NCBI GenBank assembly: GCA_040006935.1 | Contig: JBDTVZ010000003.1 | Span: 66,224 to 130,223 of the forward strand | Length of the DNA stretch: 64,000 nt | Source of the DNA: Candidatus Dojkabacteria bacterium | Lineage (GTDB): Bacteria; Patescibacteriota; Dojkabacteria; J137 | Direction of reading: 5' to 3' | In this document: piece after piece, positions 9,270 through 64,000 of the stretch | How positions within the stretch are numbered: the first letter of the stretch is position 1 | How the letters are laid out: each line of letters begins with the position of its first letter | Program-made: the position numbers and the translations under genes | The notes under the pieces: model-generated | What the model was told of the DNA's origin: nothing | What the model saw: only the letters and a program-made list of their open reading frames with translations | Databases searched by the model: none

Positions 9270-9656
9270 ATGCATAAAAATAAAGATGGAAAAGTAACAG
9301 CGTCACTTACTGAAGTTAAAAATAGAACGGGAGACATTTTTGCACTTGTTGATGAATTCGGAGAGGTATATTTAACTTCGTATAATAAGGTTAGGTATAA
9401 GATTACCAAAACAGATATTGCTGATTATATTGATCTGAAGGATTCTCCTACTAAAACAGAAAAGAAAGAAGTTAAGAAAGTTATTAAACAGGATAAATCG
9501 ATCACACAGGAAGAATTAAGACCAAAAGTTGTGACAGAAGGGTCTGCTGTGAACAATGTTTTAAGCAAAATATCTAAGGTTTTACCTTGGGATAGAGATA
9601 ATAAAATGGAAAGAAAATTTGCAGATAATGCAAGAAGTCCTTTAGTTAGTAATTAA
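9270..9656 (+). CDS. Phd/YefM-family type II antitoxin-like protein with an extended charged C-terminus
   Basis: The N-terminus SLTEVKNRTGDIFALVDEFGEVYLTSYNKVRYKI fits the Phd/YefM fold pattern. It sits immediately upstream of a PIN-domain gene. Confidence 0.5.
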   Translation: MHKNKDGKVTASLTEVKNRTGDIFALVDEFGEVYLTSYNKVRYKITKTDIADYIDLKDSPTKTEKKEVKKVIKQDKSITQEELRPKVVTEGSAVNNVLSKISKVLPWDRDNKMERKFADNARSPLVSN

Positions 9657-9673
9657 ATATTAATGTTAATAAT

Positions 9674-10048
9674 ATGAAAGAAGTTGTATTAGTTGATACT
9701 GGAATAATTGTAGAGTATCTAAGAACAGGCAAAGGCGTACTCCCCTCTGCTTATGAGAGCTATGAGATGGTAATATCTGCATCAACTTACACTGAGCTTT
9801 TAGCAAGTAAAACTTTTGAAGATGAGGCTTTAAAAAAAGAAGTGTTGGAATTTTGTGAGAAGTACTTCTCTATTAAGGATGTTACAGCTGAAATTGCTAT
9901 GAAGGCAGCTGAGGTTTTAAGAAATGCAGAGGTAACTCTTGCAACTGCATATATTGCAGCAACAGCCTTGGAGCATAATATTAAAGTATTAACTGATGAT
10001 CAGAAGAAATTTAGTGAAGTCTCAGGACTTATCTTCATGAATATGTAA
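9674..10048 (+). CDS. vapC: PIN-domain ribonuclease toxin (VapC-like)
   Basis: The N-terminal VLVDTGIIVEYL carries the PIN first acidic residue. A conserved C-terminal LTDDQKF Asp is present. Size is about 124 aa. Confidence 0.6.
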   Translation: MKEVVLVDTGIIVEYLRTGKGVLPSAYESYEMVISASTYTELLASKTFEDEALKKEVLEFCEKYFSIKDVTAEIAMKAAEVLRNAEVTLATAYIAATALEHNIKVLTDDQKKFSEVSGLIFMNM

Positions 10049-40411: not shown

Positions 40412-40792
40412 TTAATTCATCTGATATAACGCAATCTTGTAGCCATTTGGATCCTCGAAAAGAAGTTCTTTTGCTTCCCACATATTACTGAATATCCTTG
40501 CTTTAATTTTTCCACCAGAGTTTTCAATCAATTGATAGTAAGCTTCGATATCATCTACTTCTATATAAAATATTATTCCCATCCCTCTGTCATGATTTTC
40601 GGCAATGTATTTATAATCTTCGAAAGGTTCTTTGGTTTCCAAAACAAAATGCATTCCAAAATTCCCTAGACTTAGTACAACTTTATCATTTTCGAATTGA
40701 GTTATAGTTGCCCCAATTGCTTTATAGAACTCGTAAGTGGACACAACATCTGAAGTATATAAAACATTGAAAGATGAGTCTGGCTTATACAT
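40412..40792 (-). CDS. VOC/glyoxalase-bleomycin resistance family protein
   Basis: Size and betaalphabetabetabeta pattern; weak. Confidence 0.4.
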   Translation of the reverse strand: MYKPDSSFNVLYTSDVVSTYEFYKAIGATITQFENDKVVLSLGNFGMHFVLETKEPFEDYKYIAENHDRGMGIIFYIEVDDIEAYYQLIENSGGKIKARIFSNMWEAKELLFEDPNGYKIALYQMN

Positions 40793-41958: not shown

Positions 41959-42756
41959 TTACAGCTTTCTGACTATTACAAAGTGGCTTATTCCAAAGAT
42001 GTGTAGGGGAGTTTTTTCTAGGAATAAGAAAGTTTTCTGAATAAGTTTCCCAACTAGTCCTAGCCTTCTTACTGCTCCGTCAAAACCTGGGAATATTTGA
42101 GTATATTTAACAAATTCTGAGTTTGAAGTAGATTTTTTTATCATATTTTTTAACTCAGAACCCCAATAACTTCGAACATGAGGTGCAAATTTCTTATAAA
42201 TAATATTAGGCATCCAAGGTAATAAAGGAATATTTCCCCAATAATATTTTCCCCCTAAAAACATTCCGTGCTGTTCAAAAGGCCATAATCTGTTAGGAGT
42301 AAAGAAGACCATAAGTCCACCTTTTTTCAGAACTCTGAAACATTCCTGAAGAGTTTTTAAATCAACTTGAACATGCTCCAGAACTTCGTTATGGAAAACT
42401 ATATCAAAAAAATCATCCTCAAAGACAAGGTTCTCTCCGGGGCAATTAACTATATTCTTTGGGTTAACGACTGACGGTTGACGGTCACCGTTTTCCCTTT
42501 TGCGCTTTCCTAGATCTTCTTTTAATTTTACAACTTGATCATTATCATATTCTGAACCATACACATTATCAAAACCTGAAAGTTTTGCAAATTCTTCTAA
42601 CCAAACTCCTTCTCCGCAGCCCATATCTAGAACCTTTTTATTTGAGAAATCTACATATTTTTTAATTAAATCTAACCTTCTTTGAAATCCAGCCGTAAAT
42701 GCTGTTCCCGGTTTTCCAAGGTGTGCAAATTTTGTGTGTTCAGACATTACTTTCAT
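41959..42756 (-). CDS. Class I SAM-dependent methyltransferase (with an in-frame GC-rich insertion)
   Basis: Motif I VLDMGCGEGVW. The GC-rich palindromic segment at 42462-42512 encodes KRKRENGDRQPSVVNP. Confidence 0.6.
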   Translation of the reverse strand: MKVMSEHTKFAHLGKPGTAFTAGFQRRLDLIKKYVDFSNKKVLDMGCGEGVWLEEFAKLSGFDNVYGSEYDNDQVVKLKEDLGKRKRENGDRQPSVVNPKNIVNCPGENLVFEDDFFDIVFHNEVLEHVQVDLKTLQECFRVLKKGGLMVFFTPNRLWPFEQHGMFLGGKYYWGNIPLLPWMPNIIYKKFAPHVRSYWGSELKNMIKKSTSNSEFVKYTQIFPGFDGAVRRLGLVGKLIQKTFLFLEKTPLHIFGISHFVIVRKL

Positions 42757-46683: not shown

Positions 46684-47478
46684 ATGACTTATTTTATCTG
46701 TAGAATTCCATTTGGAACTTCGGAATTAAAAATTAAAACCTTAAATGAAATTCCCGATTCTACCGCAGAGGAAATTTCATACTTTATAAATGCTTTTTAC
46801 AATGAGCTAAATCCTAATCTTGCAAATACTTCTGCATATAATTTTAATCATGGGCAAATAGGAATTCCTATTTTTTTGAAAAAAGAGTTTTTAGATTTTT
46901 TATCACAGCATCTGGAACTCGCAGCCGCTACTGAATTTGAATATCAACCTTTTAGTATCTTAGATCCTGATTTAGATTTGAATAGTAATTTGATAAGTGT
47001 AGATAAAAGATCACTTTCTGTAACGAAGAACGATGACATCTCTCTTGAAAGTCCAATAAATCGTAAACACTTTACGATAGATATTTTAAGTGACTTCTTA
47101 ATTAGAGAAAAAGCACTTTCTGATTTTTTAATTGTTTCCGACTCCGTATTCTTAGCCAGGGGAAAACATCCATGGGCTATTGATATTACAGACCATACAG
47201 TGCAGGATTTTACTTTAGAGATTAGAAACGAATCAGTTGTGATTGAACCAATGGAAGTGAAAACCATGAAAAATACTTTTGGTGTTATAGATGAAATCTC
47301 ACCAGTTCAGTATATTTTTATACAAGGCAAATATACAAATTTACCGAAGATAATAGGAACTATTGCGAAGAGAGAAAGGAGCTTAGGAGGTTTAAGTGAA
47401 GTTTCGAGAAAGTATGGAGTAACGATTCATGCTCTGGATAAAAATGATAAACTTACAACTTTTACACCCCGACATTAA
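46684..47478 (+). CDS. Hypothetical protein
   Basis: ORF only. Confidence 0.3.
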   Translation: MTYFICRIPFGTSELKIKTLNEIPDSTAEEISYFINAFYNELNPNLANTSAYNFNHGQIGIPIFLKKEFLDFLSQHLELAAATEFEYQPFSILDPDLDLNSNLISVDKRSLSVTKNDDISLESPINRKHFTIDILSDFLIREKALSDFLIVSDSVFLARGKHPWAIDITDHTVQDFTLEIRNESVVIEPMEVKTMKNTFGVIDEISPVQYIFIQGKYTNLPKIIGTIAKRERSLGGLSEVSRKYGVTIHALDKNDKLTTFTPRH

Positions 47479-48662
47479 AAACTCAAATTCGGTTCTCTAT
47501 CAATCTCACCAAATTCTTTTGGATCAAGATAAACTTCCTTATTATTTTTCATTCTTAACTCGTCATTCGTAATTATATTTGCAACGATTCCAATCATCGC
47601 TGCATTATCCCCAGTTAGCTTATTTGAATATGGAAACCTAAGTTTAATATTTTTATTTAAAGATTTCCTAATTAGTGACCTCAATTGCGTACTTGCAACA
47701 ACTCCCCCCCCTAGCCAAATTTCTTTAGGATTATAAATCTTGACAGCTTTCTCTAGCTTAAGAACAACTTGCATTAAAGCTGCATGTTCAAAAACTACAC
47801 ATAAATCTTTAATCGTTTCTGAGTTTAAATTACTTTCTCCAAATTTTGAAATGAAATCTCTGAAGGCTGTTTTTAAACCAGAATAACTAAAGTTTAAATC
47901 ACCAGAATGTTGCATGGGAATTGGAAGGTTATATTCTTTTTGTGAATGAATATTTACACCTTTTACAATTACGCTCTGATTTTTATTAATAATTTCTAAT
48001 TTAATATTTTTTCTATTCTCTTTAGCAAATTTTGAAATTGTTGGACCTGCTGGATAACCAAGGCCTAAAAACCTTCCACATTTATCAAAGCATTCACCAC
48101 AAGCATCGTCTACAGTTTCTCCAATTTTTTTATACTTTCCAAAATCTTCTACAAGAATAAATTCAGTATGACCTCCAGAAACAAGAACACCAATTGCTGG
48201 GAATTGAGGTATTACTGCCCTCTCCTTTAGGAGAGGAGGGACCGCTTGCGGTGGGTGAGGTAATTTAGAGTTTCTTTCTGCAAAAGCAGAAAGTAAATGT
48301 CCCTCCATATGGTTCACATTTACTAAAGGTTTACTATATTTCTCTGCAAGTTCTTTTGCTTTTTTAATTCCTACCTCTAACGCTATTGCTAATCCTGGAC
48401 CTTTTGTAACTGCTATTGAATCTATTTCTTCGATTGTTTTCCCAGATCTCTTTAATGCTTCAATTACAACTGAATCTATTCTTTCTTGATGAGCTAATTT
48501 TGCAATGGATGGAACTACTCCACCGTATTGTTTATGTAAATCAATTTGAGACGGTTGGAAGTTAGACAGAACTGTATTTCCTAGCAAAACTGCAACAGAA
48601 GTTTCGTCACAAGAAGTGTCGATGGCGAGGATCAAGTTTTGTTTTTCTGGTAGAATTTGCAT
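47475..48662 (-). CDS. tsaD: tRNA N6-adenosine threonylcarbamoyltransferase TsaD (Kae1/YgjD)
   Basis: N-terminal ILAIDTSCDETSVAV and metal-binding HMEGHLLSAF (HxxxH), then VLVSGGHTEF. An approximately 16-aa GC-encoded insert (LPHPPQAVPPLLKERAV) precedes the conserved IPQFPAIGVLVSGGHTEF block. Confidence 0.88.
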   Translation of the reverse strand: MQILPEKQNLILAIDTSCDETSVAVLLGNTVLSNFQPSQIDLHKQYGGVVPSIAKLAHQERIDSVVIEALKRSGKTIEEIDSIAVTKGPGLAIALEVGIKKAKELAEKYSKPLVNVNHMEGHLLSAFAERNSKLPHPPQAVPPLLKERAVIPQFPAIGVLVSGGHTEFILVEDFGKYKKIGETVDDACGECFDKCGRFLGLGYPAGPTISKFAKENRKNIKLEIINKNQSVIVKGVNIHSQKEYNLPIPMQHSGDLNFSYSGLKTAFRDFISKFGESNLNSETIKDLCVVFEHAALMQVVLKLEKAVKIYNPKEIWLGGGVVASTQLRSLIRKSLNKNIKLRFPYSNKLTGDNAAMIGIVANIITNDELRMKNNKEVYLDPKEFGEIDREPNLSF

Positions 48663-55951: not shown

Positions 55952-56785
55952 ATGGATCAGAAAAAACCTTCGCGATTACCTCTAATATTAGCAGTCCTCG
56001 CACTTATAGGATTATGCATTGTGAGTATTATTGCCATAATTTTAGGCCTTGTTCTAATTAACAGGAATCGAGAAGATGTTAAAAATAATAGTAATGATAC
56101 TGGAACTGTAAGTTCACCAGTTGTAAATCCGCCGACTCCTGAACCAATCCCAGTTGCAACAAAATGCAGAATTGATAACTCCCCTACAATAGATTCGACT
56201 GATGCATATGAAATAAATGTAAAAAGACCGTTTGTTTCGGGTTGCGAATCTCAAGCGCAAAATGATCTCAATCAATATATTATTGACTCGATAAACCAAG
56301 ATGAAAAGACAGTTAAATTTACCGATCCTTCTGGAAGTGCTAAAAATTCATTGGATTTGGACTATGAAGTTGTATCAAATAGCACAAAGTTTATAAGCAT
56401 TCTTATCAAAGGATATATTTATTTAGGAGGAGCTCATGGTGATTCAGTTTTCATTCCAATAAATTATGATCTTGTTCATAATAAAATTATTAAATTCGAA
56501 GATCTAGAAACAGACCCCCTTTTTGTTTCTAAAATATCATCTTATTCTATAAATGCTTTAAAAATAAAACTTAACGAACCCGAGCTTGATTCTTCCATAG
56601 AGTCTGGAGCAAGTGCGGACTCTGCTAATTTTCAAATCTTTAATCTGTATAAAAACGGTATCAAAATAACTTTTGGAGATTATCAAGTTGGACCATATGC
56701 ATTAGGACCACAAGAAGTATTAGTGCCTTGGAGTGAAGTTTCTAACTATGCATCACTAGAAATTCAAGATCTATTAGGAGTTTAG
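55952..56785 (+). CDS. Secreted DUF4163/DUF3298 (RsiV/PdaC-type) domain protein
   Basis: N-terminal TM/signal, then ...YLGGAHGDSVFIPINYDLVHNKIIKFEDL, typical of DUF3298. Confidence 0.45.
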   Translation: MDQKKPSRLPLILAVLALIGLCIVSIIAIILGLVLINRNREDVKNNSNDTGTVSSPVVNPPTPEPIPVATKCRIDNSPTIDSTDAYEINVKRPFVSGCESQAQNDLNQYIIDSINQDEKTVKFTDPSGSAKNSLDLDYEVVSNSTKFISILIKGYIYLGGAHGDSVFIPINYDLVHNKIIKFEDLETDPLFVSKISSYSINALKIKLNEPELDSSIESGASADSANFQIFNLYKNGIKITFGDYQVGPYALGPQEVLVPWSEVSNYASLEIQDLLGV

Positions 56786-57396
56786 GATAATTCCTGAAAT
56801 CTAAAACAATCCTCTGTATGATCCATAACAAGCCCTGTTGCTTGCATATGTGCATACATGATTGTTGATCCTACAAATTTAAAACCTCTTTTAATTAAGT
56901 CTTTAGAAAGTGCATCCGATTCTTTTGAATTTGCGGGAATTTCTTTTGGAGTTTTCCAATGATTAATAATTGGTTTATTATTTACAAAAGACCAAATGTA
57001 TTTAGAAAAACTTCCGTATTCATTTTGAATTTCTAAAAACAATTTTGCATTATTTATTTCAGACCTTATCTTTAATTTATTTCTAATTATTTCTGGATTT
57101 AATAAAAGTTCTTGAAATTTACTCACATCATATTTTGCAACTTTACTAACATCAAAATTTGCGAACGCTTTTCTATAACCTTCTCTTCTTTTTAAAATCG
57201 TACTCCAACTTAATCCTGCTTGAGCCCCCTCTAAAATTAAAAACTCAAAGTGAATTTTATCATCATGAATAGGAACTCCCCATTCCGTATCGTGATATTT
57301 AATCATTTCATCGAAAGAATTTTGTACCCAAAAGCAGCGTGAACGATTCCCCTCTTCAGAGGGGATTAAGGGGTGTGTTTCATTCAACTTTTTCAT
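56782..57396 (-). CDS. tag: DNA-3-methyladenine glycosylase I (Tag)
   Basis: RCFWV..YHDTEWGVP...EGAQAGLSWSTIL are Tag motifs. The roughly 19-aa N-terminal extension is encoded partly by a GC hairpin at 57349-57364. Confidence 0.8.
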   Translation of the reverse strand: MKKLNETHPLIPSEEGNRSRCFWVQNSFDEMIKYHDTEWGVPIHDDKIHFEFLILEGAQAGLSWSTILKRREGYRKAFANFDVSKVAKYDVSKFQELLLNPEIIRNKLKIRSEINNAKLFLEIQNEYGSFSKYIWSFVNNKPIINHWKTPKEIPANSKESDALSKDLIKRGFKFVGSTIMYAHMQATGLVMDHTEDCFRFQELS

Positions 57397-57760
57397 ATTC
57401 TTCTATCCAAACAATTATCGTTTGCAAAATATTATTAATATTACTTTTTACACTGTGATCGCTAAATCTAATAAGATTGATTCCTATAGCCAAAAGTTCT
57501 TTCTCTCTTTTAAGATCATAATCAAATTTATCTTCGTTATGACTATTCCCATCAATCTCAATAGCCAATTTTAATTCAGAACAATAGAAATCTACAATAT
57601 AGTTTCCAATAGGCCTTTGTCTATGAAAATCAAAACCTAATAGTTTTTTATTTCTAATTTCTTTCCATAATAAAACCTCAGAAAGTGTACTTTTATTTCT
57701 GAGGTTTCTTGCTAACTGTTTAAGTTTAGGGTTGTAAGGAATTATTTCTCTCATGAACAC
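57380..57760 (-). CDS. DUF559 (Vsr-like endonuclease domain) protein
   Basis: LRNKSTLSEVLLWKEIRNKKLLGFDFHRQRPIGNYIVDFYC...IEIDGNSH matches DUF559. Confidence 0.65.
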   Translation of the reverse strand: MFMREIIPYNPKLKQLARNLRNKSTLSEVLLWKEIRNKKLLGFDFHRQRPIGNYIVDFYCSELKLAIEIDGNSHNEDKFDYDLKREKELLAIGINLIRFSDHSVKSNINNILQTIIVWIEEYEKVE

Positions 57761-57838
57761 ATTCCTAAATCCCTTCTCAAGAAGGGACTTTCTTTAGTCT
57801 CAATACTCATGGTTTAAGTTCTCTTAATTCCTAATTAA

Positions 57839-58993
57839 TTAAACTTCTCTTCTTAAAGGCATTAGAAGATGCATAAACTTCTCATCACCCAAGTCTCTAA
57901 AAACGGAAGCAGATAGAGCACCCTTAGTCTCAAATTTGAGCTTATCTCCAGAGATGTGCGCAACAATATCTTGTAAATATCTCAAATTATATGCTGCATT
58001 TAAATCACTTTCCCCTTCTATGTTTTCCACTTGAATAATAGTTTCGTTTTCCCCAACATCTGCAACACTAGATTTTAATTTAACTTGTTTATTTTCCAAA
58101 TCTAAATCAAATAAAGTTTTATAAGCTAAATTGCTTCTCGCAAAAGTACTAATTACTTTTATTGCAGATTCAAACTCTTTTTTTTCCACATCAAATGTAT
58201 AGCTTGAAGAGTCTGGAAGAATTCTTTTATAGTCTGGATAAGGTCCTTCTAAAAGCCTCACGCTAAATTCAATTTCTTCAATTTTAAAAATTATTTGTGA
58301 TTTGTTCTCACTCAGGTAAACATCTACAGCCTCTACCTCGCTCATATCACTAACTATTTTCATCATTTCTTGAAGATATTTTGCGGGAACAATAATTTGT
58401 TGTGTTGTTAATTCTTTATTTAATTCCTTAACTTTAATTTCTCTTTTTGAAAGTCTAAAACCATCTAAACCTATTAAATTTATTGATTTAGAATCTTCAT
58501 CCGCTGAAACTTCAAATAAAACTCCTGTTTGTTGTATTTTTCCTGGACTCATATCTGTTGAGCAACTGAAAATAACTTTGTCTAAACTCTTTAAAAGTTC
58601 TTCCGAATCAATAGAAAAAAATTTAGTTTCAGTTACCTTTGGTAAAACAGGATACTCTGCGGCTGGAATTGTATTAAAGTTTGCTTTAGATTTACTCGTT
58701 TTAACATTCAAAACAGTATCCTTTAGCTCAAGCTCAACATTATCTGAAGTAGATGCTGATACAAAATCAGCAAGGAATTTTGCTGATACAGTAATGCTTC
58801 CCTCTGTTTCAACTACTCCAGGTATCCACACATTTATCCCCATGTCTAAGTTAGTTGCAGATAGTTTAAGGTCGTTTTTAGTAACGTCCAATTTAACATT
58901 GGAGAGAATTGGGATATTTGGTTTGGAACTCACTGCCCTACTTGCATAATTCAAAAGTTTGGAGAGTTTTTCATGATTTAAGGTTATCTTCAT
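57839..58993 (-). CDS. dnaN: DNA polymerase III beta sliding clamp
   Basis: Three-domain beta-clamp pattern; N-terminal MKITLNHEKLSKLLNYASRAV; length 384 aa. Confidence 0.85.
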   Translation of the reverse strand: MKITLNHEKLSKLLNYASRAVSSKPNIPILSNVKLDVTKNDLKLSATNLDMGINVWIPGVVETEGSITVSAKFLADFVSASTSDNVELELKDTVLNVKTSKSKANFNTIPAAEYPVLPKVTETKFFSIDSEELLKSLDKVIFSCSTDMSPGKIQQTGVLFEVSADEDSKSINLIGLDGFRLSKREIKVKELNKELTTQQIIVPAKYLQEMMKIVSDMSEVEAVDVYLSENKSQIIFKIEEIEFSVRLLEGPYPDYKRILPDSSSYTFDVEKKEFESAIKVISTFARSNLAYKTLFDLDLENKQVKLKSSVADVGENETIIQVENIEGESDLNAAYNLRYLQDIVAHISGDKLKFETKGALSASVFRDLGDEKFMHLLMPLRREV

Positions 58994-59267
58994 ACTTAAT
59001 ATTTAATAAGTAGTAATTAATAGCATTAGGGACTGTAGATATGTGTAAAACTTTGTAAATTCCATTTATTATAACAGCTTCCGGAGGGTTTTTGAACTGT
59101 GGATAATCCATGTGTATAGTTTCGGCTAGAAATAGGTCAAAATCAGTTAAGAGGTAAGAATTAAGAGTTAAAATTTTGTGTATTATCTCAAGGGGATAAA
59201 AGGATAAGTTAATAAAATTTCAGTAAGCAAACCCTTTTCATGTGTGGAGAAGTTTTAAAAAACTGAT
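58994..59267. promoter_or_regulatory. AT-rich region with DnaA boxes (perfect TGTGGATAA at 59098-59106; partial boxes at about 59245), a candidate oriC segment
   Basis: The 9-mer box is seen directly. The region is AT-rich and lies between dnaN and yidD. Confidence 0.45.
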
Positions 59268-59558
59268 CTATATATCTGTGTTTCTTTTTATAGAAAAGTG
59301 TTTAGGTACAGGGTCATAGCCGCCTTCTGCCATAGGATTGCATCTTAGTATTCTAAAAAATCCCATAATACTTCCTCTTATTAATCCAAAGCGATCAACT
59401 GCCTCGTAAGTATATTGCGAACAGGAAGGTTCGTGAATACAAACTCTGTAATCAATATACTTAGCCCAGAAAGAATGATCAAAAGAAAATAGTTTTTGAT
59501 AAATCCTAATTAAAAATTTACCTATGTTTTTTGGAATGTTAAAAATAAATCTAATCAT
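59268..59558 (-). CDS. yidD: Membrane protein insertion efficiency factor YidD
   Basis: [10 protein letters not shown]...[46 protein letters not shown]. Confidence 0.8.
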
Positions 59559-60240
59559 TGTTTTCTGTTATAACAAATATTTTATCAACTGGAATGTCAC
59601 CTGCTCTGACTATAGGTTTAAAGGTAAATATTTTAAAAATTTTAAGACCTACTTTTTCTATTCTTTCTTTTAACTCCTCTTCAGTGAAATAGTTTGTATA
59701 AGTCTCTAATTTCTCTGAAACTTTCAAACGAGGATCTTGTGAAGTTAAATAAGGTTCTTCTTCAAATCCCTTAAACGTGCCTTTGTGACCAGACATTAAA
59801 AATAAACCATTTTTTACTAATATTCTTTTAATTTCTTTAAAAAGTTCATCGACTTCTTCATCCGGTATATGGATTATGGAAAAGCCTGCAATTATAGAAC
59901 CAACAGAATTAGCATCTAAAGTCTTCAAATACGTAAGCATCTCTTCCTTTACAATTTTTAAACTATTGTCTTTAAACCTTTCTTTCAATATTTCGCAAAA
60001 CTCAGGAACAAACTCAACTGCTGTAATATTTTTTAAATTATTATCATACAAATATTTAATATAATTACCAGGACCACTTCCTAAATCTAAAATTTCTCGA
60101 TTTTCCAAGTGCCTTCTTTTTAGTAATTCAATAAATAGATCAACCGCTTCGAAATTATCAAAGTCATTACCAAAATCTTCGAAGTAAAGGCCTGCAATTT
60201 TTGAGTAATCATCTTTTGTCTTCGCTCTTTTCTTATCCAT
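59551..60240 (-). CDS. Class I SAM-dependent methyltransferase
   Basis: Motif [16 protein letters not shown]. Confidence 0.55.
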
Positions 60241-60408
60241 ATTTGAATTATAGCCTTTTTTATTATTTTACTGATAAATTTTTATTATAAGTTATCCACA
60301 TGGATAACTTTCTGATGTATAATTCTTAAGACTTCTGGAAAAACTTAGCTATCTTATATTATTAAAGATCAATAATTCTAAAATTGATCTTAATTTAAAT
60401 TTTTTTAA
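60241..60408. promoter_or_regulatory. dnaA upstream region with palindromic DnaA box pair gTTATCCACAtggataac (60291-60308), candidate oriC/dnaA promoter
   Basis: A perfect TTATCCACA is directly abutted by a near-perfect inverted copy. A gatcaataattctaaaattgatc inverted repeat follows. Confidence 0.5.
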
Positions 60409-61806
60409 ATGAAAATAACGGATCCCAAACAACTTTGGAAAGTATCTTTAGCGCAAATAGAAATTAAATTAGACGCCCCAGCTCAATTCAAAATGTTTTT
60501 CCAGGATACAAAGTTATTAAAAGTTGATGGAAAGCTTGCTGTTATTGGAGTTCCAAATCCATATACATCTGAATGGTTAAAATCGAGATACGAAAATCTT
60601 ATTAGGGATACTTTAACCTACGTTTACGGGGACACCTTAAACCCCATGTTTGAAGTTTATCAAAAGGAAATAGTAAACGATATTCAAAATGAAAACTCGT
60701 CGCCACTACTCACAATGCAAAACGGTGTTATGGGAAGTGTTATCGACTTAGTTTCGAAAGCTGGTTTAAATCCAAAATATTCTATGTCTAATTATATAAT
60801 TGGAAATTCAAATCGAATTGGCCATGCTGCTGCGCTTGCAGTTATTGATAAACCAGGAATGTCCTACAACCCTTTGTTTGTTTACGGAAAAACTGGCGTT
60901 GGGAAAACACATTTATCTCAAGCAATTGGGCGATCTATTTTGGAAAGAAATTTAAAATCGAAAATTCTTTACGTTTCCTCAGAAGGTTTTTTAAACGACA
61001 TGGTTAAAGGAATTAAAACAGGAAGCCAGGAAAAAATTCGACAAAAATATCGACAAATAGATATTTTAATAATCGATGACATGCAGTTAATTTCTAGGTG
61101 GGTAAGTACTCAAACAGAATTTTTTAATACCTTCAACGAACTTTATAATGCAGGGAAACAAGTAATTTTAATTGCAGATAGAAGACCAGAAGATATTCAA
61201 AATTTAGAATCAAGACTTCGTTCTCGAATGCAAGGTGGAATGGTTGTTGAGATAGCCCAGCCAGATTACGAAACAAGGCTTGCGATTTTACAAAGAAAAG
61301 CAGATTCTTCCGGCTTCACATTAAAACAACAAATTCTAGAATTTATTGCAAAAGCTGTTAATGATAATGTTCGAGAACTCGAAGGTGCTCTACAAAAAGT
61401 TGCCCTATTTAATCAAATGAAACCAGGAGGAGATTTAACTTTAGAAGAAGTTGCACACACTATTGGACGTGATGCAAAAACAAGAAGAGAACAAATCAAA
61501 GTCCCTAAAGTTTTAAAAGAAGTTTGTAGATCTTTTGGAGTTACAGCGAAAGATTTAAAAGGACCAAGTAGGACAAAAGAATTAGCTTTGGCAAGACAAG
61601 TAGCAATGTTTATACTAAGAGAAGAATTCAATTACAAATTAGAAGAGATTGCAAAATTTTTAAATAGGCAGGATCATACTACTGTGATTCATGCGATAGA
61701 TAAAATTAAAAGTAAGATGATGATTCAAGAAGGATTTAATACTCAAGTTTCTCATATAATTACTGCGATACAAGAGGCTGCTGCAGTAAGTGATGATTTT
61801 GAATAA
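60409..61806 (+). CDS. dnaA: Chromosomal replication initiator DnaA
   Basis: AAA+ Walker A GKTGVGKTHL, box VII, and the C-terminal DnaA-box-binding HTH (..RQVAMFILREEFNYKLEEIAKFLNRQDHTTVIHA). Confidence 0.93.
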   Translation: MKITDPKQLWKVSLAQIEIKLDAPAQFKMFFQDTKLLKVDGKLAVIGVPNPYTSEWLKSRYENLIRDTLTYVYGDTLNPMFEVYQKEIVNDIQNENSSPLLTMQNGVMGSVIDLVSKAGLNPKYSMSNYIIGNSNRIGHAAALAVIDKPGMSYNPLFVYGKTGVGKTHLSQAIGRSILERNLKSKILYVSSEGFLNDMVKGIKTGSQEKIRQKYRQIDILIIDDMQLISRWVSTQTEFFNTFNELYNAGKQVILIADRRPEDIQNLESRLRSRMQGGMVVEIAQPDYETRLAILQRKADSSGFTLKQQILEFIAKAVNDNVRELEGALQKVALFNQMKPGGDLTLEEVAHTIGRDAKTRREQIKVPKVLKEVCRSFGVTAKDLKGPSRTKELALARQVAMFILREEFNYKLEEIAKFLNRQDHTTVIHAIDKIKSKMMIQEGFNTQVSHIITAIQEAAAVSDDFE

Positions 61807-61814
61807 ACTAATTT

Positions 61815-62411
61815 ATGTCTAAAATTTACATTTCTCGTCACGGTGATTATTCCAATCCGAACAACATTAATCCTTTTCGTAGTGATGAGGTATCTCTTTC
61901 ACCAAAAGGAATTGAACAAATTGAGCAAAATGCAGAGTTTTTAAAAGACAAGAATATTGCAGCAATATTTTCCAGCCCAGTAAATCGTTGCAAACAAAGC
62001 GCAGAAATTTATTCAAAAATTTTAAAACTTCCAATAAAATTCACAACTGATTTAATTGAAGTGGGCAGTCCATATCAAGGTACAAATAATGATACTTATC
62101 ACGATGAACTTGCAGGAAGTTCTCTTTATGCAAATGAACAACACTTAGCAAACAAAGGAGAACCTGCTGACGAAATAATTGAAAGAATGAAAAACATAAT
62201 AAGAAAAGCTCTAGAAGAATATAAAAATAAAAATATACTTATTGTAAGCCATGGTGATCCAATTGAACTTCTTTTTGCATATGAGACAGGACTAAGTTTA
62301 AATTACGAAAAAAGATTAGAGGAGCAACTCAAATATATTCCAAAAGGTGGATTAATCGAAATGAATTATGAAGGGAATAAATTTATGAATTATAAGAATT
62401 TAAATTTCTAG
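61815..62411 (+). CDS. Histidine phosphatase (phosphoglycerate mutase-like) family protein
   Basis: RHG motif at the N-terminus (ISRHGDYSN) and a second His in VSHGDPIE. Confidence 0.55.
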   Translation: MSKIYISRHGDYSNPNNINPFRSDEVSLSPKGIEQIEQNAEFLKDKNIAAIFSSPVNRCKQSAEIYSKILKLPIKFTTDLIEVGSPYQGTNNDTYHDELAGSSLYANEQHLANKGEPADEIIERMKNIIRKALEEYKNKNILIVSHGDPIELLFAYETGLSLNYEKRLEEQLKYIPKGGLIEMNYEGNKFMNYKNLNF

Positions 62412-62540: not shown

Positions 62541-64000
62541 ATGTTATCAAAATTATTCACGGCAACTCTCACTGGACTAGATTGCACAATTGTAGAAGTC
62601 GAAGTAGATTACAAAAAAGGAGAGGCATACTTCTCTATTGTTGGCCTTGCAGATAAATCAATTCAAGAGGCAAAAGATCGAATTCCACCAGCAATTCGAA
62701 ACTCTGCTGCTTCATTTATTCCAATGAGAATTGTGATGAGTTTAGCACCAGCACAACTTTCTAAATCTGGACCAAGTTACGACCTACCACTAGCACTGGG
62801 GTATTTAATAGCCTCTGATCAAATTTCTATCGATCCAAAAGATAAATTATTTATTGGAGAACTTGCACTGGATGGAAGACTTCGCCCAGTTCGCGGGATT
62901 TTACCAATAACAGATGCCGCAAAAAAACTTGGATTTAAAGAAATTTATTTACCATCAGACAATGCCAGTGAGGCAAGCGTTGTAAAAGGAATTAACGTTT
63001 ATTCTGTAAATCATCTTCGACAATTAATTGATCATTTTAATGGACTGGAAATCCTAAAACCAGAAAAAGAAACTGAATTTATAATTGAAGATAATCAAGA
63101 ATACAAATTTGATTTATCTCAAGTTAAAGGACAAGAACATGCAAAAAGAGCTCTGGAAATTGCAGCTGCTGGTGGACACAACATTCTCCTGTCGGGAGTT
63201 CCAGGTTCGGGGAAAACAATGTTAAGTAGATGTTTACCTACAATTCTTCCGCGAATGGAAATAGAAGAAAGTTTAGAAGTAACTAGAATTCATAGTGTTG
63301 CAGGACTTACTTCAAAAAATAATCCAATTATAAAAATTCGACCATTTCGTTCACCGCACCATACAAGTTCACAAGTTGCATTAGTTGGTGGTGGAGCATT
63401 TCCAAAACCAGGCGAAATCTCACTAGCACATCGAGGGGTATTGTTTCTAGATGAGTTTCCAGAATTTTCAACTCAAGCACTAGAAGCATTACGACAACCA
63501 TTAGAAGATAAAGTTGTGACAATCTCCAGAGCACAAGGCACTCTAACTTTCCCTGCAAATTTCATACTCGCAGCGGCAATGAATCCTTGTAGATGTGGCT
63601 ATAGAGGAGACCCGGTTAAGCAATGTACATGTACTCCGCTGGAAATTATTCGATACCAAAAAAAAGTTTCTGGTCCAATTCTAGATCGAATTGATTTATT
63701 AATTCGAGTACCAAAGGTTGAAAATAATAAACTATTTAGTGAATTAAAAAGTGAAAGCTCACAAGTAGTTCGTGAAAGAGTTCAAAAGGCAAGGACTATG
63801 CAAGTAGAAAGATTTAAATCGACAGGATTATTTTGTAATTCTGATATGAATCAGAAAGATTTAGATAAATTTGTGGAACTGGATCCATCTTCAAGAAATA
63901 TTTTAAATCTTGCAGTAAATAAAATGAATTTAAGTGCACGCGCCTATTATCGACTTTTAAAAGTCTCTAGAACAATTGCGGATTTAAGAGGAAGGGAAAA
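62541..64000 (+). CDS. YifB/ComM-family Mg-chelatase-like AAA+ ATPase (3'-truncated by the window end)
   Basis: Found by direct reading from ATG 62541 with no stop before 64000. N-terminal Lon-like domain, Walker A LSGVPGSGKTM, Walker B VLFLDEFPEF, and a CRCGYRGDPVKQCTC zinc-ribbon insert typical of ComM. Confidence 0.75.
   Translation, partial: MLSKLFTATLTGLDCTIVEVEVDYKKGEAYFSIVGLADKSIQEAKDRIPPAIRNSAASFIPMRIVMSLAPAQLSKSGPSYDLPLALGYLIASDQISIDPKDKLFIGELALDGRLRPVRGILPITDAAKKLGFKEIYLPSDNASEASVVKGINVYSVNHLRQLIDHFNGLEILKPEKETEFIIEDNQEYKFDLSQVKGQEHAKRALEIAAAGGHNILLSGVPGSGKTMLSRCLPTILPRMEIEESLEVTRIHSVAGLTSKNNPIIKIRPFRSPHHTSSQVALVGGGAFPKPGEISLAHRGVLFLDEFPEFSTQALEALRQPLEDKVVTISRAQGTLTFPANFILAAAMNPCRCGYRGDPVKQCTCTPLEIIRYQKKVSGPILDRIDLLIRVPKVENNKLFSELKSESSQVVRERVQKARTMQVERFKSTGLFCNSDMNQKDLDKFVELDPSSRNILNLAVNKMNLSARAYYRLLKVSRTIADLRGRE

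Follow-up and report, generated by a model that had tools for sequence, protein, structure and literature searches.

In Bacillus subtilis, the spacer between dnaA and dnaN (incC) is the known unwinding region of a bipartite chromosome origin, in which clusters of DnaA boxes lie on both sides of dnaA (PMC6669920). The basal unwinding system (BUS) of that origin, located upstream of dnaN, consists of DnaA-boxes 6/7, DnaA-trios and an AT-rich element (PMC6669920, PMC8287927), and the published search rule for such systems asks for a box with no more than two mismatches, a spacer not exceeding 16 bp and three or more NAN trios (PMC8287927). In other classes of Patescibacteria, RnpA and RpmH are found near dnaA (PMC12102498). 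Here we describe the dnaN-yidD-dnaA region (positions 58994-60408) of a 64-kb stretch of DNA from a metagenome-assembled genome of Candidatus Dojkabacteria (WS6; Patescibacteria/candidate phyla radiation, CPR). We refer to this whole stretch as the window. To our knowledge, no replication origin of CPR bacteria has so far been characterised experimentally, and our literature search found no account of any Dojkabacteria replication origin.

A first-pass annotation of the window had proposed that this region fits oriC, although with an atypical gene order. Our analysis upholds this proposal, with DnaA boxes conserved in two spacers and a reversal of strand composition at the level of the family, and we consider it very probable that the region is the chromosome replication-origin region of this Dojkabacteria genome. 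For its internal anatomy we favour, with somewhat more confidence than doubt, a BUS-type unwinding module at dnaN (58994-59120) and a palindromic DnaA operator upstream of dnaA (60291-60323), with yidD and a strain-specific methyltransferase gene lying between the two.

The comparison set was built by searching species-representative genomes with a DnaA protein query, which returned 27 Candidatus Dojkabacteria loci (DnaA 54-92% identical to that of the window) and 53 control loci from other bacteria. A DnaN query against metagenomes added nine short Dojkabacteria contigs, which were usable for synteny but not for skew. The Dojkabacteria comparison thus comprises 36 related loci, or 37 sequences including the window, and each related locus comes with no more than 10 kb of sequence per side. 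Synteny was based on tblastn and clustering of open reading frames (ORFs), gene identities were taken from Pfam and NCBIfam profiles, and the region upstream of dnaN was aligned for 19 Dojkabacteria loci.

DnaA boxes in two spacers

The window contains just two perfect TTATCCACA boxes. One (TGTGGATAA) lies at 59098-59106 and the other, at 60292-60300, belongs to a palindromic box pair (gTTATCCACAtggataac, 60291-60308); a check against the sequence placed both sites exactly where the first-pass annotation had reported them. Taken alone, the number of perfect boxes is not significant, as 0.5 are expected and two or more occurred in 6 of 100 shuffles. The two boxes stand out because of their placement, since both fall in the intergenic spacers that adjoin dnaN and dnaA.

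When up to two mismatches were allowed in the scan, the densest DnaA-box cluster of the 64 kb was found at 58750-59250 (z = 6.5), and its boxes are kept at orthologous positions in relatives. The dnaA promoter region ranked second or third in box density, depending on the size of the scanning interval (z = 3.3-3.7). The box clustering that the first-pass annotation had suggested as a check is therefore borne out, but the two sites that it listed side by side, while both real, do not appear to be equivalent: the dnaN side carries a putative module of the unwinding type, whereas the palindrome sits on the dnaA -35 element in the manner of an operator. Near-consensus boxes within the dnaN coding sequence also add to the density peak. 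Two of these, GTATCCACA and TTATCCCCA, are 12 bp apart near the 5' end of the gene (58822-58842), and two more start at 58182 and 58233 (span 58182-58241). A 46-aa ORF that runs over the perfect box (58971-59111) has no family match and was treated as spurious.

A candidate unwinding module upstream of dnaN

The gene for the DNA polymerase III beta clamp, dnaN (57839-58993, minus strand), is recognised by all three DNA_pol3_beta Pfam domains (E = 7e-26 to 2.5e-17), and orthologues occur in 18 of the 27 relatives taken from genomes and in each of the nine metagenome contigs. Immediately upstream, on the same minus strand, lies the element that we call module N (about 58994-59120). Followed toward dnaN, it begins with tandem DnaA boxes that have 4 bp between them, namely CTATACACA (59111-59119, two mismatches) and the perfect box at 59098-59106. 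Next comes a predicted dnaN promoter (59068-59096), composed of a -35 element TTCAAA (59091-59096), a 17-nt spacer and an extended -10 element TGTTATAAT (59068-59076), which scored 10 of 12 matches plus the TG extension in the promoter scan. Two head-to-tail degenerate boxes with two mismatches each, TTTTACACA (59042-59050) and ATATCTACA (59034-59042), are followed by a 4-bp GC cluster that reads GTCC on the dnaN strand (59030-59033; nTCC in the alignment consensus) and separates the proximal box from five in-register DnaA-trio-like triplets. Each of these triplets has a middle A on the plus strand (59015-59029, 5'-AAT TAA TAG CAT TAG-3'). The AT-rich stretch between the trios and the dnaN start codon (58994-59014, minus strand) occupies the position of the AT-rich element in incC-type origins and is a candidate DNA unwinding element (DUE). 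Three further box-like sites in the same minus-strand orientation (59177-59185, 59191-59199 and 59243-59251, one to two mismatches) are of uncertain status because their positions are not conserved in relatives.

The layout of module N is shared across the family. In Dojkabacteria loci the boxes upstream of dnaN lie at about -131, -118, -57 and -49 from the start codon and all point toward dnaN, and this spacing is kept in loci with dnaN downstream of dnaA as well as in those where the two genes diverge. A box in the same orientation at about -113 to -119 and/or -126 to -136 was present in 14 of 19 loci. Toward dnaN, the 19-locus consensus runs TTATCCACA, 4 nt, TTATCCACA; CTGnTATAAT; TTATACACATATCnACA; nTCC; CTA TTA CTA TTA; AT-rich DNA; ATG. 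Within it, CTGnTATAAT is kept in 16 of the 19 aligned loci, and the head-to-tail box block TTATACACATATCnACA, in which CAC is invariant, shows the strongest conservation of any non-coding block in the family. The trio nearest the box (the CTA column) is likewise invariant in the 19 loci. This invariance of the CAC and CTA columns is notable because the DnaA proteins concerned are only 54-90% identical. The trio consensus on the dnaN strand, CTA TTA CTA TTA, corresponds to 3'-GAT AAT GAT AAT-5'; trio 3 matches [CT]TA in 11 of 19 loci, and the later trios are degenerate.

Set against the BUS search rule, the window has a box with two mismatches (ATATCTACA), a 4-bp spacer (GTCC) and five NAN trios. 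The element also stands in the same register across the relatives, where the tandem boxes, the GC cluster and the first trio are invariant or nearly so over the 19 loci. RNAalifold predicted 0 pairs upstream of dnaN, which rules out a structured RNA leader as the cause of the conservation and indicates that the conservation of module N acts at the DNA level.

Taken on its sequence features, module N is probably the unwinding module of the origin. If it works as incC and the basal unwinding system do in B. subtilis, DnaA-ATP would dock on the boxes of module N and then oligomerise onto one strand of the trios, and the oligomer would open the neighbouring AT-rich DNA for helicase loading.

Strand composition around the probable origin region

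In order to separate replication from coding effects, GC skew was calculated at third codon positions (GC3 skew) on the coding strand for all ORFs of 300 nt or longer in the Dojkabacteria loci. The average was +0.153 for genes pointing the same way as forks that leave the region (n = 150), compared with -0.017 for opposed genes (n = 103; p = 7e-14), and the polarity reverses between the flanks (left, p = 3e-11; right, p = 1.4e-4). Loci with the canonical gene order allow the switch to be placed more narrowly. The 18 minus-strand genes between dnaA and dnaN in these loci average +0.20, which is indistinguishable from the minus-strand genes of the left flank (p = 0.9) and higher than those of the right flank (p = 0.003). 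The intervening genes thus behave as if they lay left of the origin, which puts the strand switch at module N and not at the yidD/dnaA spacer.

For individual loci, the left-hand GC3 component is negative in 17 of 18. A skew switch is seen both in L015, which shares the synteny of the window, and in the complete genome L018 (-0.12 / +0.12). The raw GC skew of the window mostly follows gene strand. With only 4 kb of sequence on the right-hand side, the cumulative minimum at about 59-61 kb is no more than a hint, and per-gene GC3 skew within the window alone is too noisy.

The palindromic box pair at the dnaA promoter

The replication initiator gene dnaA (60409-61806, plus strand) was identified by the Bac_DnaA (E = 1.4e-57), Bac_DnaA_C (E = 1e-23) and DnaA_N (E = 3e-6) domains. 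Upstream of it, and on the same strand, lies module A, a palindromic pair of overlapping DnaA boxes (GTTATCCACATGGATAAC, 60291-60308) that we propose as an operator for dnaA autoregulation. The predicted dnaA promoter (60295-60323, plus strand; 10 of 12 matches in the scan) has its -35 element, TCCACA, within the perfect box, followed by a 17-nt spacer and a TATAAT -10 element (60318-60323). Eighteen Dojkabacteria loci contain the palindrome TTATCCACRTGGAYA, in every case 45-170 bp ahead of dnaA, and none of the 53 non-Dojkabacteria loci does. A TATAAT-like -10 element 8-10 nt past the palindrome is also kept in relatives, whereas the remaining leader sequence is not. Because the box pair covers the -35 element of the dnaA promoter, module A is most likely an operator through which DnaA would repress its own gene. 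It may also be the second DnaA-binding part of a bipartite origin, with yidD and the methyltransferase gene as the spacer in place of dnaA.

The very AT-rich dnaA leader (60340-60408, plus strand) is an alternative DUE candidate. It contains an imperfect hairpin, an 18-nt inverted repeat with arms at 60356-60373 and 60383-60400 and a 9-nt loop; otherwise, only AT-rich, chance-like matches were found as direct or inverted repeats in 58900-60500. At the equivalent place in L001 (about 9900-9960) there is a different 12-bp inverted repeat, GATATTAGATAC...GTATCTAATATC, and a hairpin may therefore be conserved in the leader though its sequence is not.

Gene order across Dojkabacteria

In most Dojkabacteria, including the window, yidD is divergent from dnaA. 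The position of dnaN is more variable. The order dnaA then dnaN is retained by most Dojkabacteria. In about 14 loci, dnaN and a FemAB-family gene behind it are found downstream of dnaA and in the same orientation. In these, dnaN is adjacent to dnaA in L017, L022, L025 and L026 and 1-9 kb away elsewhere, as in L005, L007 and L013, with intervening genes that are mostly on the minus strand. The window, L001, L015 and L027 instead have an inverted dnaN block placed upstream of yidD. The adjacency of yidD and dnaN is also found on the metagenome contigs L084, L088, L090 and L091, and a related divergent arrangement occurs in L011 and L018, which belong to a second clade.

The first-pass annotation had singled out a dnaN upstream of and divergent from dnaA as unusual. 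The arrangement itself is confirmed, but it is no peculiarity of this genome: the synteny comparison that the annotation recommended recovered the same yidD / module N / dnaN order in L001, L015, L027, L084, L088, L090 and L091, so that it is common to eight contigs of the clade. Since these eight contigs are independent, the order in the window is real and not an artefact of assembly. Nucleotide homology to L001 is unbroken over dnaN, module N, yidD and dnaA, except for the insertion of the methyltransferase gene. In a neighbour-joining tree of DnaA, the order dnaA then dnaN is seen in the basal lineages (L025, L026) and in L040, the CPR outgroup, and the divergent forms fall in two separate clades. 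On this comparison, the divergent dnaN of the window's clade is a derived inversion, inherited within the clade.

Some relatives carry the same parts in other arrangements. In the complete genome L018 (AP024679.1), dnaN and dnaA are directly divergent over one 360-bp spacer (9635-9994) of 19% GC with at least six boxes, while yidD follows dnaA in the same orientation, giving a third arrangement. In L003, L004 and L009 (dnaA at about 10001 or 3971), neither yidD nor dnaN was found within the locus, and two DnaA boxes, one of them perfect, lie 73-111 bp upstream of dnaA. In this sub-clade dnaA seems to have moved entirely away from the dnaN-linked module. The other synteny breakpoint in the window is a convergent 4-nt overlap (47475-47478) between a conserved gene of no assigned function (46684-47478, plus strand) and tsaD (47475-48662, minus strand), where a block containing dnaJ, an ftsK-like gene and others meets the inverted, dnaN-containing block (holA, sodA, apbE, tsaD). 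To the right of dnaA, comM is present in L002, L003 and L004 as well as in the window, L001 and L015, but on opposite strands between the two groups, which points to further small inversions on this flank.

Alternative readings of the region

Several explanations compete with an origin that unwinds at dnaN. One of them leaves the origin in this region but moves unwinding into the methyltransferase-dnaA spacer (60241-60408), such that the palindrome would recruit DnaA, the leader (about 60340-60408) would be the DUE and module N would only be a DnaA-regulated dnaN promoter. This spacer has 18% GC and holds the least stable DNA of the region; the leader is among the top 0.05-0.24% of least stable intervals, while module N reaches the top 0.5-4%, and its trio and AT-rich part (58994-59025) the top 0.5% with 30-mers only. 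The leader keeps this explanation alive. The least stable 30-bp interval of the dnaN-yidD spacer is the AT-rich stretch next to the dnaN start, and AT-richness discriminates poorly as a mark of a DUE because the genome is 30% GC. The local switch from minus- to plus-strand genes in this spacer, the cumulative GC-skew minimum of the window and the perfect box kept upstream of dnaA in many relatives would also suit unwinding beside dnaA. However, conservation there is confined to the palindrome and the -10 element and does not extend to the AT-rich leader, the box is not followed by trio-like repeats, and its overlap with the promoter -35 is operator-like. Moreover, the genes between dnaA and dnaN in canonical loci carry left-replichore skew, placing the switch at module N, and dnaA of L003, L004 and L009 retains its boxes though both neighbours are lost. 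On this evidence we regard unwinding beside dnaA as unlikely, if the most plausible place for it other than module N.

Another explanation is that both box sites are only operators of a DnaA regulon, at the dnaA and dnaN promoters, and that the true oriC lies elsewhere. The strong boxes all abut or overlap predicted sigma-70-type promoters, so a purely transcriptional role would fit, and the number of perfect boxes alone carries no significance. The window, with only about 4 kb of right flank, has no clear skew reversal, and neither has its closest relative L001, in which the replication component of GC3 skew is -0.05 on both sides. Across the family the right-hand GC3 component is positive in only 9 of 16 testable loci, and the pooled skew samples are not phylogenetically independent and rest on at most 10 kb per side of each related locus, not on whole chromosomes. 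The BUS rule is permissive, with frequent chance matches in 30% GC DNA, and the trio pattern is degenerate after the first triplet. All of these points, together with the low stability of the dnaA leader, weigh against an origin with its unwinding module at dnaN. Nevertheless, four co-oriented boxes with a GC cluster and trio-like repeats exceed what a simple operator needs, they lie in the densest box cluster of the 64 kb, and the family GC3 skew reverses with origin polarity (p = 7e-14), also in L018 and L015; we therefore think it improbable that the sites are operators and nothing else. It could lastly be argued that the gene order stems from assembly or binning, through the chimeric joining of sequences at an origin-proximal repeat, given that the source is a metagenome-assembled genome and that origin regions are prone to rearrangement. 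We attach almost no weight to this, since the yidD / module N / dnaN adjacency (with the dnaA flank where the contig is long enough) recurs in seven other independently assembled contigs from different projects and the homology to L001 is interrupted only where the methyltransferase gene has been inserted.

Absence of rpmH and rnpA from the probable origin neighbourhood

The first-pass annotation saw no rnpA or rpmH in the window, with the proviso that genes under 60 aa are easily missed, and described the rpmH-rnpA-yidD block as apparently reduced to yidD. Neither gene was found in the 64-kb window, whether by motif searches or by tblastn with queries from E. coli, B. subtilis and CPR bacteria. 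A tblastn search for L34 or RnpA near dnaA or dnaN was negative in all 37 Dojkabacteria sequences (0/37), also when repeated with Curtissbacteria and other newly extracted queries, whereas in the control loci the same search detected L34 in 48 of 53 and RnpA in 45 of 53. In one CPR locus, L040 (Curtissbacteria), the rpmH-rnpA-yidD cluster is complete and diverges from dnaA-dnaN. The reduction to yidD is thus real, but it belongs to the class and is not a local event. A simple local rearrangement, with rpmH-rnpA on the flank beyond the window, also finds no support in the relatives, as the pair was not seen in the 10 kb to the right of dnaA in L001, nor on the same side in L015 and L023, where the sequence extends for 4-5 kb. 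Because all 37 Dojkabacteria sequences are negative while the controls are positive, the loss of rpmH-rnpA from the origin neighbourhood is, as judged by these searches, a class-wide trait. That the two genes were lost from the class altogether, rather than relocated, appears highly improbable to us.

At Rfam gathering thresholds, the whole 64 kb contains only three tRNAs (Pro-TGG, Arg-GCG and Ser-CGA), and RNase P RNA was not found in the window at these thresholds. In a circular Dojkabacteria genome, the RNase P RNA is diverged and lacks most of helix P15, and lowered thresholds were needed for its detection (PMC8172020).

The methyltransferase gene and the variable slot beside yidD

Between the two box sites lie yidD (membrane protein insertion efficiency factor; 59268-59558, minus strand; Pfam YidD E = 3.6e-22; NCBIfam TIGR00278 65.6 bits, cutoff 40) and a gene for a class I SAM-dependent methyltransferase (59551-60240, minus strand; Pfam Methyltransf_11, _25 and _23). 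The latter overlaps the start of yidD by 8 nt, and because of this overlap the two genes probably form an operon.

No homologue of the methyltransferase was found in the 36 related Dojkabacteria loci, and the gene is missing even from relatives whose DnaA is about 90% identical. Window positions 59555-60288 (roughly 730 bp) stand in place of 82 bp of L001 and of a different, 159-aa ORF in L027. The next-best full-length homologues are 44-49% identical and lie in unrelated contexts; the nearest solved structures are MM_2633 and phosphoethanolamine N-methyltransferases, and no NCBIfam family reaches its cutoff. A DNA methyltransferase (N6, N4 or C5) was ruled out, as only generic class I small-molecule domains match, and so was a paralogue of the methyltransferase at 41959-42756 of the window, to which there is no meaningful similarity. 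By these comparisons the methyltransferase gene is cargo specific to this strain, carried in a variable slot upstream of yidD. The first-pass annotation had viewed it as standing where rnpA is expected, but it does not replace rnpA: it is a strain-specific insertion into a slot that unrelated cargo fills in relatives.

The slot extends from the yidD start to the palindrome of the dnaA promoter. It holds the methyltransferase gene in the window (59555-60288), an ORF of 159 aa and no known function in L027 (2658-3137) and nothing in L001, and the same slot was delimited in L008 (9280-9861), L017 (9114-9832) and L019 (8947-9823). Its occupants in relatives also include a gene for a MOSC-domain protein, a PIN toxin paired with a PrlF-like antitoxin, and a NUDIX gene with a glyoxalase-like gene. 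The slot has the look of a hot spot for repeated insertion next to the origin. A 126-aa glyoxalase-like gene elsewhere in the window (40412-40792, minus strand) is homologous to the yidD-dnaA slot gene of L019 (9446-9823) and L022.

Flanking genes

To the right of dnaA, the window continues with a branch-1 histidine phosphatase gene (Pfam His_Phos_1; 61815-62411, plus strand) and a comM/Mg-chelatase-like gene (Pfam; 62541 to 64000, plus strand, cut by the window end), and the same two genes form the right flank in L001, L015 and L023. Every gene identity proposed in the first-pass annotation agrees with the Pfam and NCBIfam profiles. Its remark that gene orientation flips exactly here is right locally, with five minus-strand genes in 56782-60240 and three plus-strand genes after 60409, but farther to the left genes of both strands are intermingled (ORFs summed from the ORF list cover about 28 kb on the minus strand and about 23 kb on the plus strand). 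Just downstream of dnaN, a DUF559 gene with a Vsr-like endonuclease fold (57380-57760, minus strand) overlaps a 3-methyladenine glycosylase gene (56782-57396) by 17 nt. It may be a mobile or selfish gene, as it is present in L027 and absent from L001.

Evolution of the region and its implications

A stepwise history would account for the present order. The ancestral arrangement would have been rpmH-rnpA-yidD divergent from dnaA-dnaN, from which rpmH-rnpA would have left at the base of the class. Inversions in the window's clade would then have put module N and dnaN beyond the yidD-dnaA unit, and the methyltransferase gene would finally have been inserted into the variable cargo slot upstream of yidD. 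A broader proposition, for and against which we see the case as evenly balanced, is that the unwinding module is tied to dnaN and not to dnaA, that yidD-dnaA with its palindromic operator is a separable cassette which is inverted, displaced by 1-9 kb or removed depending on the lineage, and that the site next to the operator is a recurrent landing pad for accessory genes.

The conserved BUS-like module at dnaN offers a concrete marker with which oriC may be placed in genomes of uncultured Dojkabacteria, and it could anchor growth-rate estimates based on marker frequency. It also calls for caution, in that the position of dnaA alone should not be used to set the origin in this class. Our current understanding of how replication starts is unchanged by this locus, which would be a rearranged but otherwise ordinary origin. 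It does provide a further case in which the ancestral rpmH-rnpA-yidD / dnaA-dnaN neighbourhood has been dismantled stepwise with its DnaA-box modules intact.

Comparison with known origins

As in oriC of B. subtilis, box clusters lie upstream of both dnaA and dnaN in the window. The dnaN side resembles incC and its BUS in the succession of tandem boxes, a short GC cluster, CTA/TTA triplets, AT-rich DNA and the dnaN start. Firmicutes among the control loci show the same layout of box, GC cluster and CTA trio upstream of dnaN, for example ATATCCACA-GCCA-CTACTATTACTA in L046. Boxes in the dnaA promoter are likewise consistent with autoregulation, as in B. subtilis. The differences lie mainly in the arrangement. 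In the window, the two clusters are separated by yidD and a cargo gene (about 1.0 kb) instead of dnaA, dnaN is divergent from dnaA and not co-transcribed with it, module N contains a conserved extended -10 promoter, and the cluster on the dnaA side amounts to a single palindromic box pair. With dnaA outside the two box subregions, the window departs from the bipartite oriC of the B. subtilis and Helicobacter pylori type, whereas the canonical loci L017 and L025 conform to it.

The remaining parts can be compared in the same way. Of the rpmH-rnpA-yidD-yidC cluster, the window retains a yidD that is still divergent from dnaA, while rpmH and rnpA are absent and yidC was not identified beside yidD. 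The overlap of a DnaA box with the dnaA core promoter (-35 and spacer) is shared with the DnaA-autoregulated dnaA promoters of E. coli and B. subtilis. Unlike these, the Dojkabacteria operator is a perfect or near-perfect palindrome of 16-18 bp made of two overlapping boxes and conserved across the class, a putative site for DnaA or for another dimeric protein. Origins that adjoin dnaN but lie away from dnaA exist in other bacteria, for instance among the cyanobacteria in DoriC. Dojkabacteria are like these in that the box cluster and the skew switch follow dnaN, but differ from them in the window, where dnaA is only 1.4 kb away and keeps a box pair of its own.

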